Source: Terriglobia bacterium (GTDB taxonomy: Bacteria; Acidobacteriota; Terriglobia; JAIQFV01). Taken from it: a DNA stretch of 64,000 nt. The stretch covers positions 68,359-132,358 of the forward strand of contig JBGQBO010000007.1 in assembly GCA_041494885.1 (NCBI GenBank), written 5' to 3'. The position numbers and the translations under genes were made by a program. The notes beneath the pieces are model-generated. The model made no database searches and had not been told where the DNA came from. It saw nothing but the letters and a program-made list of their open reading frames with translations. Each line of letters starts with the position of its first letter. The stretch's first letter is position 1. Of this stretch, positions 1-35,878 are shown in pieces.

Positions 1-2265
1 GTCAATGCCCTTCATGAAAGCATCGAGCAGGGCACCGGGGGCCTGAAAACCTTTCCAAAGATTGTGGGCGGCCGGTACGGATTGTCGTCCAAAGAATTCA
101 CCCCTGCCATGGTCAAGTCGGTCTTCGACAATCTCAAGGAGACCCGTCCGAAGAATCACTTCACCATCGGTATTCATGACGACGTTTCACATACCAGCCT
201 TTCCTTTGATCCCGAATTCTCAATCGAGCCGGAGAATGTGGTCCGTGCGCTCTTCTACGGTCTGGGATCGGACGGAACGGTGGGCGCCAATAAGAACTCC
301 ATCAAGATTATCGGTGAAAATACGGACAATTTTGCACAGGGTTACTTCGTGTACGACTCCAAGAAGGCGGGTGCGGTCACCGTGTCCCACCTGCGGTTCG
401 GTCCCAATCCAATCCGGTCCACTTACCTCGTCACGCAGGCCAATTTTGTGGGGTGCCACCAGCCTGTCTTTCTCGAGCGTTACGACATGCTGAAGGACAT
501 CGTCGAGGGAGGAACGTTTCTCCTGAATACCCCCTACGGCCCGGAAGAAGTCTGGAATGAGCTTCCTCGTACTGTTCAGCAACAGATCATTCAGAAGAAA
601 TTAAAGTTCTATGTGATCGATGCCGTCAAGGTGGCCCATGAGAGCGGGATGGGAGGGCGCATCAATACCGTTATGCAAGTGTGCTTTTTTGCCATCTCAA
701 AAGTCCTTCCCCGCGACGAGGCCCTGACTGCCATCATAGACTCTATTCAGAAGACCTATGGGAAGAAGGGTGATGAAATTGTCCAGATGAATCTGAAGGC
801 CATAGACCGGGCACTTGCCCACCTGTTCGAGGTCCACGTTCCTCAACACGCAGAAAGTCAGATCCAGTTGCCGCCTCCGGTCCCCAAGGAAGCACCGGAA
901 TTTGTCCAACAGGTCCTGGGAGAGATGATTGCGGGGCTTGGAGACGGTCTGCCGGTCAGCGCACTCCCCGCGGATGGCACCTATCCCACGGGGACTTCAA
1001 AGTGGGAGAAGCGGAACATCGCACTCGAAATCCCGGTGTGGGACCCCGCCGTGTGCATTCAGTGTGGCAAATGCGCGATGGTCTGTCCTCACAGCGTCAT
1101 TCGCATCAAAGCCTACGATCCAAAAATTCTTGAAGGCGCGCCGGCGACCTTTAAATCCAGCAACGCCGGGGACCGCGAGTGGAAGGATTTGAAATACACC
1201 ATTCAAGTGGCCCCGGAAGACTGCACGGGATGCGCCATCTGTGTGGACGTCTGTCCGGCCAAGAACAAATCGGAAACACGACTCAAAGCCATCAATATGG
1301 CGCCCCAGCCTCCCCTGCGGATTCCGGAGCGGGAGAACTGGGAATTCTTTTTGAAAATTCCAGAGATGGATCGCCGCCACATCAAGGTCTCAAGCCTCCG
1401 ACAGCAGCAGGTCCAGGAACCCCTGTTTGAGTTTTCAAGCGCCTGTGCAGGGTGCGGGGAAACCCCCTACCTCAAGTTGTTGACCCAATTGTTTGGCGAT
1501 CGCGCCCTGGTGGCCAACGCCACCGGCTGTTCCTCGATTTACGGCGGGAATCTGCCCACAACGCCCTGGACCAAGAATCTGGAGGGGCGTGGCCCCGCCT
1601 GGTCGAACTCGCTGTTTGAAGACAACGCCGAATTCGGGCTGGGCTTCCGGGTTTCCGTTGACAAGCAGAAAGAATTTGCGTCCGAACTGTTGAAAAAACT
1701 GGGGGGGAGCGTTGGAGAGGATTTGGCCACGGCCATTCTAACAGCTCAACAGAAAGACGAGGCGGATATCTACGAACAGCGGGGACGGATTGAGATCCTG
1801 AAAGAAAAACTTGAGCGCCTTAGCTCCGACGACGCCCGGCGGTTATTGTCGCTAGCCGACCTGCTGGTCAAAAAGAGTGTGTGGATTGTGGGTGGGGACG
1901 GATGGGCTTACGACATCGGCTTTGGGGGACTCGATCATGTTTTCGCGAGCGGCCGAAATGTCAATATCCTCGTCCTGGACACCGAAGTGTACTCCAACAC
2001 GGGGGGACAAATGTCCAAGGCTACTCCGCGCGCTGCTGTGGCCAAGTTTGCAGCCGGGGGAAAGCCCGTTGCCAAAAAAGATCTTGGTCTGATTGCCATG
2101 ACCTACGGCAGTGTTTACGTGGCCAGCGTGGCGATGGGCGCCAAGGATGAACACACCTTGAGGGCGTTTCTCGAAGCCGAGGCGTATGACGGCCCATCCT
2201 TGATCATCGCCTACAGCCATTGCATCGCCCATGGCATCAATATGACGACCGCCATGCACGACTAG
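1..2265 (+). CDS. nifJ: Pyruvate:ferredoxin (flavodoxin) oxidoreductase, 5'-partial (enters from upstream). The reading frame ends at an in-frame TAG at 2263-2265.
   Basis: The frame is open from nt 1. Translation shows two 4Fe-4S ferredoxin motifs (CIQCGKCAMVCP, CTGCAICVDVCP), the TPP-binding GDGWAYDIGFGG...LVLDTEVYSNTGGQ region, and a C-terminus ...AYSHCIAHGINM typical of NifJ/Por-type PFOR. Confidence 0.9.
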   Translation, partial: VNALHESIEQGTGGLKTFPKIVGGRYGLSSKEFTPAMVKSVFDNLKETRPKNHFTIGIHDDVSHTSLSFDPEFSIEPENVVRALFYGLGSDGTVGANKNSIKIIGENTDNFAQGYFVYDSKKAGAVTVSHLRFGPNPIRSTYLVTQANFVGCHQPVFLERYDMLKDIVEGGTFLLNTPYGPEEVWNELPRTVQQQIIQKKLKFYVIDAVKVAHESGMGGRINTVMQVCFFAISKVLPRDEALTAIIDSIQKTYGKKGDEIVQMNLKAIDRALAHLFEVHVPQHAESQIQLPPPVPKEAPEFVQQVLGEMIAGLGDGLPVSALPADGTYPTGTSKWEKRNIALEIPVWDPAVCIQCGKCAMVCPHSVIRIKAYDPKILEGAPATFKSSNAGDREWKDLKYTIQVAPEDCTGCAICVDVCPAKNKSETRLKAINMAPQPPLRIPERENWEFFLKIPEMDRRHIKVSSLRQQQVQEPLFEFSSACAGCGETPYLKLLTQLFGDRALVANATGCSSIYGGNLPTTPWTKNLEGRGPAWSNSLFEDNAEFGLGFRVSVDKQKEFASELLKKLGGSVGEDLATAILTAQQKDEADIYEQRGRIEILKEKLERLSSDDARRLLSLADLLVKKSVWIVGGDGWAYDIGFGGLDHVFASGRNVNILVLDTEVYSNTGGQMSKATPRAAVAKFAAGGKPVAKKDLGLIAMTYGSVYVASVAMGAKDEHTLRAFLEAEAYDGPSLIIAYSHCIAHGINMTTAMHD

Positions 2266-2532
2266 AAAGCCGCCGTCGATTCGGGACAGTGGCTGCTCTA
2301 TCGCTATCACCCCGATCGCGCGAAGCAGGGCGAGAATCCCATGATCCTCGACTCTCGGCCTCCCAAGATTCCCTTGCAGGATTATCTGTACATGGAAAAC
2401 AGATTCAAAATGCTGACCAAAATCAAACCCGATGAAGCAACCCGGTTGCTGAAGCGGGCTCAGGAAGACGTCCAGACACGCTGGCGCCTTTATGAGTACA
2501 TGGCGGCGAGGAAGGTGGAGAACAAAGTTTAA
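2266..2532 (+). other. In-frame continuation of the PFOR C-terminal domain after the TAG (KAAVDSGQWLLYRYHPD...YEYMAARKVENKV). It is either a readthrough or pseudogenised tail, or the TAG is a sequencing error.
   Basis: Same frame as the PFOR ORF. The translation matches the conserved PFOR C-terminal extension (..QQKAAVDSGYWPLYRYNP.. in characterised PFORs). The TAG sits where a Gln (CAG) is expected. Confidence 0.6.
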
Positions 2533-3136
2533 AGTTCAAAGTTCAAGGCTCAAAGTTAAGGGCTTACTGACCGGATGTTCAATGCTTCCAGGCGAGTCAT
2601 TTTGTCTCGTCAGCCGACTTTTTAGAGGCTCTGCAACGTGACAAAAATCGAGAGGTTTGAGGACATCGAGGCTTGGAAACGGGCAAGAGAGTTGGTGTCA
2701 GACATCTATCGAATTAGCTCGACGGGTAAGTTCAATAGGGATTTCTCACTTCGCGACCAGATGCGAAGTGCCTGCATCTCAATTCTGTCCAATATTGCAG
2801 AGGGCTTTGAACGAGGTGGAAACAGGGAGTTCTTACAGTTCCTCGCTTTCGCAAAGGGATCCGCCGGGGAGCTCAGGGCACAGCTTTATATAGCTCTGGA
2901 CCAACAATATATCGCTCACGATGAGTTCGAGAGAATCGCAGGTAAGATCATGGAAGTGAGCCGAATGCTTTCCGGCTTGATGAAATACCTGCAATCGTCG
3001 GAATTGCAAGGGACCAAATATAAATCGGTCTCTGAGCCGTAGAGGGAATTGTTTCTATTATGATTATTGAATCTCAAACTGGAACTTTGAACTAGGGGTT
3101 CCGACTTTGAACTTTGAACTTGGAACTTTGAACTCT
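2527..3136. repeat. Palindromic element 1. Inverted arrays of 7-bp tandem repeats (AAAGTTC units on the left, GAACTTT units on the right) flank a four-helix-bundle gene. It is inserted between PFOR and the DHOD-like gene.
   Basis: Left arm 2527-2560: aaagttcaaagttcaaggctcaaagtt. Right arm 3073-3136: ctggaactttgaactaggggttccgactttgaactttgaacttggaactttgaactc. This is its imperfect reverse complement. Confidence 0.8.
2638..3042 (+). CDS. Four-helix-bundle protein (PF05635 / TIGR02436, the 23S rRNA intervening-sequence protein family, Avd-like).
   Basis: 134-aa ORF with GTG start. Family-typical motifs are WKRARELVSDIYRIS, ...SNIAEGFERGGNREFLQFLAFAKGSAGELRAQLYIA. It lies between the inverted heptamer arrays. 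Confidence 0.8.
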   Translation: MTKIERFEDIEAWKRARELVSDIYRISSTGKFNRDFSLRDQMRSACISILSNIAEGFERGGNREFLQFLAFAKGSAGELRAQLYIALDQQYIAHDEFERIAGKIMEVSRMLSGLMKYLQSSELQGTKYKSVSEP

Positions 3137-3149
3137 TAGAGGAAAAACC

Positions 3150-4145
3150 ATGGACCTATCAACCACATATCTCGGCTTAAAACTCCGCACTCCGCTCGTT
3201 CCCTCGGCTTCGCCGCTTTCACAGGAGATTGACAACATCAAACGAATGGAGGACGCGGGCGCATCGGCGGTTGTCCTCCATTCGCTTTTTGAGGAGCAGT
3301 TGAGACAGGAGCGTTTTGAACTGCATCATCATCTCACCCAGGGGACCGAGAGTTTTGCTGAAGCCCTAACGTACTTCCCAGAGCCCGAAGAATTCCATCT
3401 CGGCCCCGATGCGTATCTGGAACACATCCGGAAGGCGAAAGAAGCCACCCGCATTCCCATCATTGCAAGCCTGAATGGAACCTCGGTCAGCGGTTGGACG
3501 GATTACGCCCGAAAGATAGAGGAGGCGGGGGCCGATGCCCTGGAATTGAACGTCTATTACATCCCCACCGATACGGATTTGAGTTCGGTTCAAGTCGAGC
3601 AAACCTACATTGATATCTTGAGGGCCGTCAAGTACGTCGTAAAAATCCCCGTGGCGTTCAAGCTGGGACCCTTCTTCAGCAACATGGCGAACATGGCCCG
3701 CCGCCTGGAGCAAGCCGGAGCCAACGGATTGGTTCTTTTCAATCGATTTTATCAACCGGACATCGACCTTGAAGAACTCGAAGTCAGGCCGAACGTCCTT
3801 TTGAGTACACCGCAGGCCCTGCGATTGCCGATGCGATGGATAGCGATCTTGTACGGACGTCTGCAATTGAGCTTTGCGGCTACCAGTGGCGTTCATGGCG
3901 CCCAGGATGCACTGAAAATGCTTATGGTCGGCGCCAGTGTGACCATGCTTTGCTCCGTTCTCTTCCGCGCGGGAATCGACCAGATCCGGACGATTGAGCA
4001 GGACATGCGTCAATGGATGGAAGACCACCAGTACGAATCGGTTCAACAGATGCAAGGGAGCATGAGCCAGAAGAATTGTGCCGATCCGGCCGCCTTCGAA
4101 CGTGCGCAGTACATGCGCGCTATCAAGAGCTATGTGCCGGCCTGA
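3150..4145 (+). CDS. Dihydroorotate dehydrogenase-like TIM-barrel flavoprotein (DHOD/DHPD family, function unassigned).
   Basis: 331-aa ORF with RBS ggaaaaacc before the ATG. Motifs RIPIIASLNG, ADALELNVYY, GVHGAQDALKMLMVGASVTMLCSVLF resemble class-1 DHOD-like proteins. It lies between PFOR and hypD. Confidence 0.55.
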   Translation: MDLSTTYLGLKLRTPLVPSASPLSQEIDNIKRMEDAGASAVVLHSLFEEQLRQERFELHHHLTQGTESFAEALTYFPEPEEFHLGPDAYLEHIRKAKEATRIPIIASLNGTSVSGWTDYARKIEEAGADALELNVYYIPTDTDLSSVQVEQTYIDILRAVKYVVKIPVAFKLGPFFSNMANMARRLEQAGANGLVLFNRFYQPDIDLEELEVRPNVLLSTPQALRLPMRWIAILYGRLQLSFAATSGVHGAQDALKMLMVGASVTMLCSVLFRAGIDQIRTIEQDMRQWMEDHQYESVQQMQGSMSQKNCADPAAFERAQYMRAIKSYVPA

Positions 4146-4281
4146 GAGACCTTTCGGAATGCCGTGGATCCCGGTGATTTCACCCGAATTGTAGAGCCCC
4201 GGGCAAGGGGTCGCTCGCGCCAGGAGAGGATGAACTCTCAATTCCCCGGTATATGGGAATGAGCCTGGCTGAGGGGGGGTT

Positions 4282-5400
4282 ATGAAATTCATCGATGAGT
4301 ACCGTGATCGCAAGGCAGCGGGGCAATTCTCGAAGGCGATTGCCAGCATGGCGACGAAGCCCTGGACGCTGATGGAGGTTTGCGGGGGCCAGACCCACTC
4401 CATCGTGAAGTTCGGCGTGGATGAATTACTCCCCAAAGACGTCACCCTGGTGCATGGTCCCGGCTGCCCGGTCTGTGTCACACCGGTCGAACTGATCGAA
4501 AAAGCGATCGAGATCGCCTCTCGCCCCGAGGTGATTTTTTGCTCCTTCGGCGACATGCTGCGCGTGCCTGCCCATGTGGGAAGTGGTCAGGAAGCTCCCG
4601 TTGATCTTCTTTCAATCAAGGCGAAGGGAGGCGATGTCCGGATCGTTTATTCCCCGCTGGATGCGATCAAGATTGCCAGCGCTCACCCCTCAAAGCAAGT
4701 CGTGTTCTTTGCGGTGGGATTTGAAACCACCGCCCCCGCTAATGCCATGGCCGTCTTCCAGGCCTACCAGCAAGGCATCGGGAATTTTTCACTCCTCGTT
4801 TCACACGTGCTGGTGCCCCCCGCGATGGAGGCCATCCTGTCTTCTCCGGACAATCGGGTGCAGGGATTTCTTGCGGCCGGACATGTGTGCACGGTGATGG
4901 GGTATACCGAGTACGAGCCCATTGCCAAAAAATATCACGTGCCCATCGTGGTCACAGGCTTCGAGCCGGTGGACATCCTGCAGGGCATCTACCTCTGCAT
5001 TAAGCAGTTGGAGGAGGGACGGGCAGAAGTGGAAAACCAATATGTCCGGGCCGTTCGTCGCGGAGGCAATCGGGCAGCGCAGCAGATCATTCACGAGGTG
5101 TTTCGAGTGGTGCCTCGCAAGTGGCGGGGCGTCGGCGAAATCCCTCAAAGCGGACTGGCTCTGCAGGAAAAATACGCTGAGTTTGACGCGGAACTTCGCT
5201 TTGGGGTCGCTCAACACACGACGGAAGAATCCACCGAATGTATCGCCGGCCTGGTTCTGCAAGGAATCAAGAAACCTCACGAATGCCCGGCCTTCGGCGC
5301 ACACTGCACGCCGGAACGCCCCCTGGGGGCACCCATGGTCTCCTCGGAGGGCGCCTGCGCGGCGTATTATCGATATCGTCGGCTTTCTTGCAGGAACTGA
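4282..5400 (+). CDS. hypD: [NiFe]-hydrogenase maturation factor HypD.
   Basis: 372-aa ORF with HypD signature motifs [14 protein letters not shown] and C-terminal [11 protein letters not shown]...EGACAAYY. Confidence 0.9.
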
Positions 5401-5429
5401 GAACGAAGCCGGAGACTGGAAAACGGAGG

Positions 5430-5982
5430 CCAGAAGTCAGAAGCCAGAAGTCGGAAGTCAGAGGTCGGAGGTCGGAAACCAGAAGTCAGAGGTCAGAGGT
5501 CAGAGAAAGAACCAATCTCTTTACCAGGGTGGGAAATAAGAAAGGACATTGATAAAATCATACAAGGATCTCCATGTGTATCAACTTTCGTATCGCCTTG
5601 CCATGAAGGTATTCATCGCGTCGAAAGGATTTCCCAAGGACGAATTGAATTCTCTGACGAATCAAATACGTCGGTCTTCTCGGTCGGTCGCGGCTAACAT
5701 AGTAGAGGGGTGGGCAAAACGGGGGTTCGAAAACATATTTAAGCGTCACCTGATCGATTCATTTGGATCTTGCGCCGAAACAAAACTCTGGCTGGATTTT
5801 GCTCGCGACTGCAACTACCTTTCGAGGGATGATCACTCAACGCTCGAGGGGGAATATGAAGAGTTGAGCAAAATGCTTCACCGTCTTTTTGAAAGCTGGG
5901 AAACCTACAATGTTAAGTAGTTCCCTTCCCCAGAATCCCTCAGTTGAGGGTCGGACTTCTGACTTCCGACCTCTGACTTCGG
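5430..5982. repeat. Palindromic element 2. Inverted arrays of 7-bp tandem repeats (CAGAAGT/CAGAGGT, about 11 units, on the left; GACTTCT/GACCTCT, about 4 units, on the right) flank a second four-helix-bundle gene. It is inserted between hypD and hypE.
   Basis: Left arm 5430-5505: ccagaagtcagaagccagaagtcggaagtcagaggtcggaggtcggaaaccagaagtcagaggtcagaggtcagag. Right arm 5949-5982: ggtcggacttctgacttccgacctctgacttcgg. This is its reverse complement. Confidence 0.8.
5549..5920 (+). CDS. Four-helix-bundle protein (PF05635 / 23S rRNA IVS protein family), second copy.
   Basis: 123-aa ORF with TTG start and RBS aaagga. Motifs YQLSYRLAMKVF, ...RSSRSVAANIVEGWAKRG...FGSCAETKLWLDFA. Confidence 0.8.
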   Translation: MIKSYKDLHVYQLSYRLAMKVFIASKGFPKDELNSLTNQIRRSSRSVAANIVEGWAKRGFENIFKRHLIDSFGSCAETKLWLDFARDCNYLSRDDHSTLEGEYEELSKMLHRLFESWETYNVK

Positions 5983-6007
5983 CCCCGATACGTCCAGCCC
6001 TTCGTCC

Positions 6008-7111
6008 TTGGAGCACGCATCCATGAACCCTAAGGACTCCCAGTTCGCCCTTTCCTGTCCCATCCCTCTCTCCGACTACCCGACTGTTCTGCTGGCTCAT
6101 GGAGGCGGGGGGAAGTTGATGCATCAGCTCATTGAAAAAATGTTTGTCAGCACTTTTGCAAATCCCCTTCTTGAATCGCGGCATGACGGGGCTGTCATTG
6201 AATTGGAGCAAAACGTAAAGCAGGGATTTCCCCGCCTGGCATTTACGACAGATTCTTACGTCGTGCATCCGCTTTTCTTTCCGGGCGGAGACATCGCTAC
6301 ACTGGCAGTCAATGGCACCGTTAACGATCTCGCGATGTGCGGCGCCCGCCCGTTGTACCTAAGTGCGGGTTTCATTCTTGAAGAGGGCCTCCCCATGGAA
6401 ACCCTGTGGCGGGTCGTCCGTTCCATGCGGGAGGCAGCGGATCTGGCCAGGGTACAAGTGGTGACGGGGGACACCAAGGTGGTCGATCGAGGCAAGGGGG
6501 ACGGCATTTTCATCAATACGGCCGGGATCGGAATAATCGAGCACAAGCGATCGATCAGCCCGGCCAATGTTCAACCGGGAGATGTGCTTCTCCTCAATGG
6601 AGACCTGGGCCGACATGGAATTGCGATCATGGCGGTCCGCGAAGGGCTCGAATTTGAGTCGGCGATTGAAAGCGATTGTGCTCCCCTCGCCCGCCCGGTT
6701 CTGGCGCTGCTCGACGCGGGAATCGAGGTGCACTGCATGCGAGATCTGACGCGCGGAGGTCTTGCCAGCGCCCTCGTGGAAATTTCAGAAGCCGGCGGTC
6801 TCAACATCCAGATCGATGAGAATGCCATCCCGGTTCGAGAAGACGTTCAGGGAGCCTGCGAGATCCTCGGGTTCGATCCTCTTTACGTCGCCAACGAGGG
6901 AAGGTTCGTCGCCTTCCTCGCACCATCCGATGCCGACCGCGCCCTGACTCTTCTTCGTGCCCATCCCCTCGGCGAGGGAGCATGTATCATCGGGAAGGTT
7001 GCGGCGACGAACGGCTCGTCCCGTGGAGGCCTCGTGACCATGAGAAGTAAAATTGGCGTTCTTCGTATTGTCGACATGATGAGCGGCGAGCAGCTGCCGA
7101 GAATTTGTTGA
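6008..7111 (+). CDS. hypE: Hydrogenase maturation carbamoyl dehydratase HypE.
   Basis: 367-aa [11 protein letters not shown] near the N-terminus, AIR-synthase-like domains, and the C-terminus ends with the HypE-specific PRIC. Confidence 0.9.
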
Positions 7112-26866: not shown

Positions 26867-27266
26867 CAACTTCTGTCTTCCATTTTCAGGGGGTGAACTT
26901 CCGTTCACTCCCTTTTGATTTTCCGGAAGAGTCCAAAACAGGGAAGATTAAGAGGGAGGTGATTTGGACGCCCGAGGGTCCGGCCTCAAGATGCAGGGAA
27001 GTTTTCTCCCAGCCTCTGGAAAATTAACTCCGCCCAGTACAAACTGACAAATAGTCAGAAGAATCCCTGTGAGCGCTGGAGCAAATAGCGCCTTGCGCCC
27101 CCCTTCCGGAAGCGTCCGCTCCGCCTTTCGCAGATCCTTACCAGCCGAATGAATGGCAAGTTTGCCGGTTTATTCCGCAATCCGAAATCCGCAATCCCCA
27201 ATGAAAGAGTACCTCGCACGAAACCATCGGATCGGGTTGTTCTCCGAAAATTCAATCAACTCATCC

Positions 27267-35671: not shown

Positions 35672-35692
35672 TGATCGTTTCCTAATGCAAAC

Positions 35693-35878
35693 TGTCAGCT
35701 ATCAGCGATCAGCTATCAGTCCTTCAGTAATTTTCTTTGAAGAAGAAAGCGATCGGGCCTCAGTAACAACTATAAACTTAAAGCAAAACCCGTCTTCAGG
35801 GTTGATGGCTGATAACTGATTGCTGATAGCTGACGGCTGATTGCTGATAGCTGAAAGCTGACCACTGATAGCTGACCT
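35693..35878. repeat. Palindromic element 3. Inverted arrays of 7-bp tandem repeats (CAGCTAT / CTGATAG-type units) around a roughly 80-bp core with no gene.
   Basis: Left arm cagctatcagcgatcagctatcagtcc. Right arm ggctgataactgattgctgatagctgacggctgattgctgatagctgaaagctgaccactgatagctgacc. It sits between yicC and the msbA-like gene. Confidence 0.75.

Follow-up and report, generated by a model that had tools for sequence, protein, structure and literature searches.

A PF05635 four-helix-bundle gene between inverted heptamer arrays in an operon spacer of a Terriglobia bacterium, and its likeness to the intervening sequences of 23S rRNA

Positions 2518–3139 of a 64-kb stretch of DNA from a Terriglobia bacterium (64,000 nucleotides in all, hereafter the window) hold a gene for a four-helix-bundle protein of the PF05635 family, enclosed by two arrays of tandem 7-bp units in inverted orientation and lodged between two genes of an operon. 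The gene and its arrays make up one cassette, with units specific to the protein subfamily, which occurs in rRNA and in operon spacers of at least five phyla. We call such cassettes IVS-type, after the intervening sequences (IVS) of rRNA genes; their inverted heptamer arrays are a hallmark common to several phyla that had not been recognised before. We read 2518–3139 as an IVS-type mobile or selfish cassette of operon spacers, and we put the probability of this reading, with the read-through transcription, the RNase III excision and the binding of heptamers by the protein that it would involve, at roughly 0.55. The open reading frame (ORF) of the 23S rRNA IVS, S23p/PF05635, was reportedly first described in 1993 and is to our knowledge still without a function; tandem heptanucleotide arrays are said to have been reported in cyanobacteria since 1990.

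The cassette, cassette 1 below, and its two host genes are laid out as follows, in coordinates of the window; TRF stands for Tandem Repeats Finder and SD for Shine-Dalgarno.

64–2532, plus strand: upstream host gene, the 3′ part of a pyruvate:ferredoxin oxidoreductase (PFOR) gene (Pfam POR, EKR, Fer4, TPP_enzyme_C)
2518–2559, plus strand: cassette 1 left heptamer array, 5 AAAGTTC-type units (sequence, TRF, period scan)
2560–2637, plus strand: cassette 1 leader, from the left array to the start codon, with an SD-like GAGG about 9 nt 5′ of the GTG (sequence)
2638–3042, plus strand: cassette 1 gene, PF05635/TIGR02436 four-helix-bundle protein of subfamily A, 134 aa, GTG start
3075–3139, plus strand: cassette 1 right heptamer array, about 6–7 GAACTTT-type units (sequence, TRF)
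3150–4145, plus strand: downstream host gene of the DHO_dh family, dihydroorotate dehydrogenase-like (DHODH-like below; Pfam PF01180, E 7.5e-17)

The fit between cassette and host genes is tight. The first units of the left array share sequence with the closing codons of PFOR, the stop codon among them, and the SD sequence and ATG of the DHODH-like gene start directly after the end of the right array. The left array consists of 2 exact AAAGTTC units and 3 variants (TRF 2523–2557, period 7, 5.0 copies, 78% match). The right array consists of 3 exact GAACTTT units and 4 variants, with a main block at 3098–3139 (4.4 copies by TRF) and about 2 units at 3075–3097; TRF marks 3104–3134 at period 7 with a 91% match. 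An earlier note, made from the sequence, had placed a four-helix-bundle gene between PFOR and the next gene, a site that the Pfam domains of the neighbours confirm, and had counted AAAGTTC four times and GAACTTT seven times; the arrays are there, and those counts hold only with degenerate units included. The arms form a stable stem. They are 87% complementary over 31 nt (left array against 3104–3134), they are paired in both the minimum-free-energy and the centroid fold of the whole element, and their cofold energy is −47.6 kcal/mol, where dinucleotide shuffles give −27.4 ± 3.3 (z −6.1). When the whole window was scanned for tandem arrays with periods of 4–11, all 8 array segments that came up were of period 7, with none at 4–6 or 8–11, so the repeats of cassette 1 are more than chance. 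Elements additional to that of the earlier note are a second cassette at 5423–5982 (cassette 2), a gene-less hairpin at 35686–35868 and a solo array at 27170–27204.

The family assignment of the earlier note, with its coordinates, was borne out by profile searches, in which ORF 2638–3042 matched PF05635 with an E value of 7e-34 (116.7 bits, cut-off 33.8) and TIGR02436 with an E value of 7e-33 (113.1 bits, cut-off 24). The ORF also matches the solved structure 2GSC by sequence (E 9e-14). An AlphaFold model of the protein has four helices (residues 11–34, 36–59, 62–88 and 94–120; pLDDT 90.2, pTM 0.83), and Foldseek returned 2GSC (Xcc0516) as the top match to this model (root-mean-square deviation 1.5 Å, TM-score 0.79/0.90) and also 2RLD (0.73/0.86). 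A search gave about 17,800 clusters at 50% identity for the PF05635 family; the cassette proteins examined here are mildly basic (median pI 8.9). S48, N52, E55, G56 and R59 are invariant in 32 sequences of subfamilies A and B, and R43 is invariant within an 11-sequence alignment. The published family motif is GxxRxxxSxxxNxxE (Lin 2006; Zhang & Ye 2014, PMC3936711); its conserved polar part, R..S...N..E, is present here, and the leading G is not conserved. Within two large orthologous groups, of 29 and 14 species, dN/dS is about 0.10–0.11, a rough value because dS is near saturation and few pairs are usable; the cassette protein is under purifying selection. The entries for 2GSC and 2RLD each hold 5 chains and a pentamer has been described (PMC4990558); by analogy with these relatives the PF05635 protein of the window would be a homopentamer. 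No catalytic-domain match was found for the cassette proteins in Pfam, NCBIfam or PADLOC, and a defence-system reading was rejected for lack of a PADLOC match. Both four-helix-bundle genes of the window have non-ATG starts, GTG (2638) and TTG (5549), and the N-termini of their proteins align with homologues that start MAKI... and MIKSY...; the non-ATG starts may reflect a deliberately weak translation initiation.

The same fold is that of Avd, the accessory protein of diversity-generating retroelements (DGRs), and one could suppose that the cassette gene is an Avd gene left after loss of its reverse transcriptase, with the repeats as remnants of the template and variable repeats (TR/VR). Like Avd, the cassette protein is basic and has a homologous four-helix bundle, with TM-scores of about 0.7 in Foldseek to 4DWL and to structures of DGR ribonucleoproteins; 2GSC, 2RLD and 4DWL are all homopentameric barrels. 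There are weak bAvd matches (PF22296 28.4 bits and NF033474 26.4 bits), and a source gives one subfamily-B homologue the label of bAvd family protein. These scores are nevertheless below the cut-offs of the Avd models (28.4 and 21.3 bits against 40 for PF22296, 26.4 against 80 for NF033474). Unlike Avd genes, the cassette is self-contained and operon-embedded, its duplication unit (below) holds the four-helix-bundle gene only, its neighbours are ordinary operon genes, and its flanking repeats are inverted 7-nt tandem arrays and not direct TR/VR of about 100 nt. A tblastn search of a phage collection gave no match. The earlier note had found no reverse transcriptase, and none lies beside the cassettes, where PFOR, the DHO_dh-like protein, HypD and HypE are encoded, or among the neighbouring genes called in related loci; within the 64-kb window this screen covered the cassette neighbours only. 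No long direct repeat was noticed around the cassettes in the tandem and inverted repeat analysis, which included no TR/VR-directed search. Given the sub-threshold Avd scores and the lack of a reverse transcriptase at the cassettes, we reject a DGR origin as very improbable.

The array-gene-array build is general. We examined 80 homologous loci from species-representative genomes, fetched by family alignment; most are from Pyrinomonadaceae, Blastocatellia and Chloracidobacterium, and Verrucomicrobia, Nitrospiraceae, Pirellulaceae, Latescibacterota, Bacteroidetes and others are also represented. No farther than 300 nt from the gene, we counted 128 arrays of period 7 (2.72 per kb) and 0–1 at every other period; the distal flanks have 0.083 period-7 arrays per kb, which makes the enrichment near the gene 33-fold. 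Arrays are present in 74 of the 80 loci and stand on both sides of the gene in 51. In every case the units on the right are the left ones in reverse complement, and the arrays keep one orientation with respect to the gene. The unit of subfamily A has the logo A-A-n-G-T-Y-C; conservation is about 95% at G4 and T5, and position 3 varies almost freely. The commonest length is 5 units for left arrays and 4 for right ones, and the distribution of lengths is not geometric. Both neighbours point the same way as the gene in 68 of 73 loci; the spacers on its two sides have medians of 75 and 45 nt, and the arrays fill the intercistronic spacer. Host contexts include RND adaptor|pump, ABC substrate-binding protein|ATPase, GrpE|DnaJ, HypD|HypE and cas6|cas4.

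Relatives in subfamily B, the subfamily of the cassette 2 protein, to which they are 58–69% identical, occur in four unrelated contexts and taxa with a unit Y-A-G-A-R-G-T and its complement downstream. Plasmid-borne members with the array-gene-array build were found in Riemerella, Nostoc, Anabaena sp. 90, Calothrix and Geminocystis; the unit in Riemerella (Bacteroidota), GGTTYAA, is the subfamily-A unit. One plasmid copy, disrupted by an insertion sequence, is an exception to this build. An unbiased census of a 443-kb sample found a PF05635 gene inside each inverted heptamer pair with a long loop, five gene-less pairs, and no enclosed gene of any other type. These regularities bear on the idea that the arrays are slippage-prone heptanucleotide simple sequence repeats (SSRs) that happen to lie next to a small gene. 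Among long SSRs, the heptanucleotide class is reported to be the most abundant in many bacteria, with polymerase slippage proposed as its source (PMC4679880, PMC4692102), and copy number does vary between relatives. The enrichment beside the gene, the fixed orientation, the matching arms, the position-specific conservation of the unit over 25–31 independent contexts in several phyla, the peaked, non-geometric lengths and the joint duplication of arrays and gene effectively refute chance slippage.

The earlier note had compared the geometry of the element with that of 23S rRNA IVS, and the likeness goes beyond geometry. The whole of locus L180, on a plasmid of Azospirillum lipoferum 4B, falls within a 23S rRNA gene, which Rfam LSU_rRNA_bacteria matches with 2142 bits. 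Arrays of CAGAGGA/CGGAGGA, together with their inverse, enclose its PF05635 ORF (E 1.7e-33), and these inverted heptamers make an unbroken stem of about 25 bp (z −7.7). The Coxiella IVS has 2–3 tandem GACAGAT heptamers 5′ of its S23p ORF, in a copy number that varies between strains (PMC4990558). Excision by RNase III was shown for this IVS by Warrier et al. 2016 (PMC4990558), and excision without religation is known experimentally for the Coxiella and Leptospira IVS (PMC4990558). The rRNA IVS of Leptospira, Coxiella burnetii, Brucella and Azospirillum thus resemble the elements of the window in having a PF05635 ORF of about 110–135 aa, terminal inverted repeats with a long stem, tandem heptamers at the ends, transcription (presumed for the window elements) as part of a host RNA, and a sporadic distribution suggesting horizontal spread. 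Terminal heptamers, which both share, had not been regarded as IVS-defining. The differences are that the window elements lie in intercistronic spacers of operons and not in helix 9, 25 or 45 of rRNA; that window-type stems are more mismatched, about 85% complementary against near-perfect in L180; that the Coxiella ORF is decaying whereas the window-type protein is under purifying selection; and that RNase III excision has been demonstrated for rRNA IVS only. No Rfam match, to rRNA or any other RNA family, was obtained in the window, so the elements lie outside the location that is usual for an IVS and are filed here as IVS-type in a new host context.

The cassette is a discrete, heritable, duplicable and losable unit that ends at the outer array ends. 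Loci L026 and L029, from one metagenome-assembled genome, share 89% identity throughout the stretch that opens with the first left-array unit and closes with the last right-array unit, and their flanks beyond it are unrelated; a leader equivalent to 2560–2637 is conserved between these two paralogues. Close relatives, with four-helix-bundle proteins 96% and 74% identical to that of cassette 1, keep both cassettes of the window at the same sites, with the unit type unchanged and different copy numbers. To describe empty sites we collected 80 loci around DHODH-like orthologues (71–76% identity), 64 of which include the PFOR end. In 53 of these 64 orthologous junctions the interval is 12–118 nt without a four-helix-bundle gene, and several are virgin 13-nt spacers. 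A hidden Markov model (HMM) built from one family alignment alone misses a divergent subfamily at the PFOR junction, and the gap ORFs were therefore inspected and confirmed with Pfam. In the lineage whose PFOR ends in ...DQQP before the stop codon, there is an intact cassette of 439 nt in which GATTTAY / ATCRTAA arrays enclose a PF05635 gene (118 aa, E about 1e-15) from a third subfamily, a frameshifted 333-nt remnant, gene-less hairpins of 80–104 nt made of the same units, and spacers of 12–15 nt that keep about one unit. Compared as sequences, these junctions make up a graded decay series from the cassette down to gene-less hairpins. Other lineages have other unit types, a further PF05635 gene or a DUF559 gene at this junction, which across lineages is occupied by three different PF05635 subfamilies.

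The earlier note's suggestion of a small mobile or selfish cassette thus fits the empty sites, the array-to-array duplicate and the three subfamilies at one junction. The element shares presence/absence polymorphism at orthologous sites and sharp-ended dispersed copies with transposons and similar mobile elements; an encoded transposase or recombinase, or a target-site duplication, was not seen. The question is then whether the element moves as DNA, the arrays being terminal binding platforms, like the subterminal repeats of transposons, and RNA pairing being incidental. Such platforms could be bound by the four-helix-bundle pentamer or by a recombinase encoded elsewhere, as RAYT proteins act on repetitive extragenic palindromic (REP) sequences, and the hairpins would be non-autonomous derivatives in the manner of MITEs (miniature transposable elements with inverted repeats). 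A duplication unit that ends exactly at the outer array ends, several paralogous copies per genome, empty sites with repeated colonisation of one junction and a series of gene-less derivatives would all be expected of a transposon. So would a motif constraint much greater than the pairing constraint with no clear sense-strand bias (see below), and the similar identity across phyla, which suggests horizontal transfer; moreover, Ralph and McClelland, as they are cited in PMC4990558, proposed the IVS ORF as a mobility component. Nevertheless, neither nuclease nor recombinase activity is known for the small helical bundle that the protein forms, it has no catalytic-domain match, and no target-site duplication was seen at the ends of L026 and L029. 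Near-universal co-orientation with host transcription and a fixed orientation of gene to arms are not required by a DNA-only mechanism, although promoter dependence could explain the former, and the arms in rRNA demonstrably act as an RNA stem (PMC4990558). We consider a DNA-level transposon quite unlikely.

What constrains the arms can be asked of the arrays themselves. Only the arrays were used for this purpose, as a duplex fold of whole 200-nt flanks paired about 110 nt in either orientation and did not isolate them. The arms can form a stem of about 25–40 bp with periodic mismatches; the arm-to-arm duplex has a mean of −40 kcal/mol over 67 loci, and the cofolds of the window elements range from −48 to −64 kcal/mol (z −5.4 to −9). 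The order of units is weakly but significantly mirrored between the arms, at 85.8% against 83.2% for shuffled order (p about 5e-5). The arms can pair, and probably do. The constraint on the heptamer motif is far stronger than that on pairing, and this pattern of conservation strongly implies a sequence-specific reader of the unit. Arms of one element can also differ greatly in length, the upstream (sense) arm often being far longer: 11 against 4 units in cassette 2 (5423–5509 and 5950–5982), 10 against 4 in the gene-less hairpin (35800–35868 and 35686–35723), and about 38 against 5 in locus L172 (1141–1410 and 1937–1981). The surplus units of the longer arm have no pairing partner, which argues for a role of the arrays beyond the stem.

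From these observations a mechanism for the IVS-type cassette can be proposed. A consensus scan, which is a weak method for Acidobacteriota, found no plus-strand promoter or terminator in the cassettes; the cassette would have no promoter of its own and would be transcribed by read-through from the host operon. The arms would pair in the read-through transcript and RNase III would cut the stem, as it does in rRNA IVS. By the same analogy, the cut would remove the element from the host RNA and free a stem-capped mRNA for the four-helix-bundle protein, while the flanking cistrons stay functional. An uncoupling of the flanking genes, which the earlier note had suggested, would rest on this analogy too. 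The homopentameric protein would recognise the heptamer units, probably as structured RNA in the manner of its homologue Avd, and this interaction would maintain both the arrays and the element. In the DGR ribonucleoprotein the Avd pentamer holds a dedicated RNA stem-loop with flipped-out bases (bioRxiv 10.1101/2023.10.23.563531), and the periodic mismatches at position 3 of the unit would supply flipped-out bases like those that Avd binds. Two old puzzles, the function of S23p/PF05635 and the origin and partner of the heptamer arrays, thereby become simple experiments.

A number of observations weigh against this reading. Two arrays of one conserved motif in opposite orientation are complementary for the most part trivially. 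About 15% of stem positions are mismatched, with 33% at unit position 3, 21–24% at positions 7 and 1 and 4–6% at G-T-Y, and such periodic mismatches could weaken cleavage by RNase III, whose action on the cassette transcript would be an extension by analogy from rRNA. Signs of selection on the RNA strand are marginal: G·U and A·C mismatches number 128:98 (p 0.053) and 71:48, and the sense duplex exceeds the antisense in stability by only 1.3 kcal/mol, with independent contexts divided 20 to 10 (p about 0.1–0.17). Strand-specific selection for RNA pairing is therefore suggestive only. The 80 loci collapse to about 25–31 independent contexts, the orthologous groups of 29 and 14 species among them, so that the effective sample is smaller than 80, and 6 of the 80 had no arrays at the threshold used. 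In L170, on a plasmid of Pseudanabaena galeata, the flanking arrays are direct (AAAGCTA x16 and AAAGCCA x14), with inverse arrays farther out, one at each neighbouring junction; in L183, on a Picosynechococcus plasmid, the repeat has a period of 8 (GGAGATAA / CTCCTAAT). The L026/L029 duplication unit holds the four-helix-bundle gene and no transposase, integrase, reverse transcriptase or recombinase, and, as stated, its ends show no target-site duplication. Finally, orthologous cassettes have been kept at the same junction in 29 and in 14 species with dN/dS of about 0.1, and a domesticated, host-useful module fits this retention at least as well as a purely selfish element does.

Such a module would be post-transcriptional. 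Its stems would be processing or stability elements of the host mRNA that set the expression of neighbouring cistrons, the four-helix-bundle pentamer would be a trans-acting RNA-binding regulator, also of the gene-less hairpins, and selfish spread would not be the main cause of persistence. Besides the retention and the low dN/dS, this regulatory explanation draws on a placement that is always between functionally linked operon genes, on gene-less arrays with conserved units as possible trans targets, on the peak of array length at 4–5 units, and on the independent proposals by the Nostoc and Geobacter authors (cited below) of a factor that binds heptamer arrays. However, most orthologous junctions work without the element, and different, non-interchangeable subfamilies and units occupy one junction in related lineages, which is unexpected for a conserved need. 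Copies may be frameshifted and decayed (L090, L127 and L169), the element is also found in rRNA genes and in cas operons of all types, and the gene-less arrays of the window differ in unit from the units of both resident proteins. We regard domestication as the main explanation as unlikely. Neither it nor the transposon is exclusive of the IVS-type cassette that we prefer, with which both are compatible.

Heptamer arrays have been described before in several bacteria: GGGAATC arrays in Xanthomonas, with 70–75 convergent inverted pairs, mostly between co-directional ORFs (PMC4692102); GGGGAYT and TTTTGAA arrays in Nostoc (PMC4692102; bioRxiv 10.1101/2022.06.06.494920); TAACTGA arrays in Beggiatoaceae (PMC4679880); and, in Geobacter metallireducens, 15 paired sites of five MTYCTGA units (PMC2700814), with GGACCGG also in Geobacter. 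MTYCTGA, from Geobacter, is also the unit in the right arm of cassette 2. A binding factor has been postulated in several of these studies (for Nostoc, bioRxiv 10.1101/2022.06.06.494920; for Geobacter, PMC2700814). Like the arrays of the window, the published ones have 7-nt units in about 4–5 copies, lie in spacers of co-directional ORFs near stop and start codons, often form convergent inverted pairs, and vary in copy number. The window arrays are themselves heptanucleotide SSRs, or short tandemly repeated repetitive sequences (STRRs), having at least 3–4 tandem 7-nt units in convergent inverted pairs between co-directional ORFs. The published arrays have been treated as stand-alone repeats (G-quadruplexes, regulator sites or translation signals), with no mention of an enclosed gene or of PF05635, whereas in the window the arrays form the ends of a gene cassette, of which the gene-less ones look like deletion derivatives. 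A targeted full-text search found no literature linking heptamer arrays to PF05635; most subscription journals were outside its coverage, and a prior description is possible.

A wider reading, possible but doubtful, is that PF05635 pentamers in general read heptamers, about one unit per protomer and specifically for each subfamily, that they and their arrays form a hitherto unrecognised class of autonomous elements, and that gene-less deletion derivatives of these elements are the source of many heptamer arrays. Such elements would colonise rRNA helices, operon junctions and cas operons in many phyla. The peak in array length, 5 units for the left array and 4 for the right, is compatible with five units per pentamer and fits the requirement for a 28–35 bp stem equally well; the idea of five units per pentamer is speculative. 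The wider reading, if true, would give an origin to the cyanobacterial STRRs, the GGGAATC pairs of Xanthomonas and the MTYCTGA sites of Geobacter, and would supply both the IVS ORF, known for 30 years, and the heptamer arrays with a function and a partner. The cassettes, for their part, offer an origin for gene-less heptamer hairpins.

Two further comparisons are of use. Elements of the REP/BIME (bacterial interspersed mosaic element) and RAYT type and MITEs are, like the cassettes, short, palindromic, dispersed intergenic elements, often in operon spacers, and REP/RAYT systems also have a protein gene flanked by inverted repeat copies and many gene-less derivatives. The cassette differs from them in arms that are tandem 7-nt arrays and not a single palindrome, in the absence of an HUH or transposase domain, and in that no target-site duplication was seen. 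The second comparison is with cas operons. Zhang & Ye reported 18 family members, as '23S_rRNA_IVP', inside cas operons of all types (PMC3936711). These candidate cas genes belong to the same family as genes that we found on cyanobacterial plasmids at cas6/cas4 (type I-D) and cmr2/cmr3 (type III-B) junctions (L170, L172 and L183). Since the same cassettes stand between many unrelated operon genes, the cas association is more simply explained by insertion in operon spacers, and this suggests that the '23S_rRNA_IVP' genes are insertions rather than cas components. For annotation, the cassette is a common operon-embedded element that can be mistaken for a component of the host pathway.

The other features of the window are the following.

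4282–5400, plus strand: hypD, upstream host gene of cassette 2 (Pfam HypD, E 4e-153)
5423–5509, plus strand: cassette 2 left heptamer array, about 11 units (sequence, TRF, period scan)
5549–5920, plus strand: cassette 2 gene, PF05635/TIGR02436 protein of subfamily B, 123 aa, TTG start
5950–5982, plus strand: cassette 2 right heptamer array, about 4 GACTTCT-type units, 5′ of hypE (sequence; TRF 5954–5980)
6008–7111, plus strand: hypE, downstream host gene of cassette 2 (Pfam AIRS, AIRS_C; synteny in L002, L003 and L173)
27170–27204, no strand: solo heptamer array, TCCGCAA x4, between convergent genes (sequence, TRF)
35686–35868, minus strand: gene-less inverted heptamer hairpin with a loop of about 80 nt (sequence, TRF, fold)

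The left array of cassette 2 starts about 25 nt past the hypD stop codon, and its units include CAGAAGT, CGGAAGT, CAGAGGT and CGGAGGT (TRF 5431–5504, period 7, 10.6 copies). The right units are the reverse complement of the left, with inverted repeats up to 92% complementary; the fold of the whole element has a z of −3.8, and the arms cofold at −64.2 kcal/mol (z −5.4). ORF 5549–5920 matches PF05635 (E 1.6e-30, 105.8 bits) and TIGR02436 (E 4.9e-28, 97.5 bits), its homologues start MIKSYKDL or MIASYKDL, and its product is 28% identical to the cassette 1 protein. No third PF05635-family gene was found in the window with a custom HMM.

The arms of the gene-less hairpin, at 35686–35723 (TCAGCTA x4) and 35800–35868 (CTGATAG-type x10), are 92% complementary; the hairpin folds with a z of −5.05, its arms cofold at −58.6 kcal/mol (z −9.0), and it is flanked by co-directional minus-strand genes, msbA-like and yicC-like. 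The custom HMM found no PF05635 ORF inside it. In the two longest arrays, at 5426–5504 and 35803–35875, TRF also picks up a period-21 superstructure of three-unit super-repeats. The period scan found no inverted partner units near the solo array at 27170–27204. A TCCGCAA array is also present inside the hypF reading frame of the close relative L002 (496–530), where it encodes ...TPQSGIRNPNS..., and heptamer arrays can thus occur within coding sequence.

The host operon (64–7111) is unusual in that PFOR and a DHO_dh-family gene are embedded among hydrogenase-maturation genes. With the cassettes in brackets its order is hypF-hypC-PFOR-[four-helix bundle]-DHODH-like-hypD-[four-helix bundle]-hypE, which is kept in relatives (L002 and L003). 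At the PFOR|DHODH-like junction of locus L095 a DUF559 gene (2293–2709, minus strand; endonuclease-like, PF04480, E 9e-38) replaces the four-helix-bundle cassette. The heptamer-free junctions of L109, L126, L138, L144, L150, L160, L162 and L166 have a recurrent palindrome, approximately AGAGACGTTGCTTGCAACGTCTC, which is a REP-like element of these Acidobacteriota. PFOR in the window has an in-frame TAG at 2263–2265, 88 codons ahead of its natural stop. This TAG is a single C-to-T change relative to the CAG of an independent assembly (L001), the sole difference in 4155 nt; its source is a nonsense mutation at strain level or else an error in the assembly or consensus.

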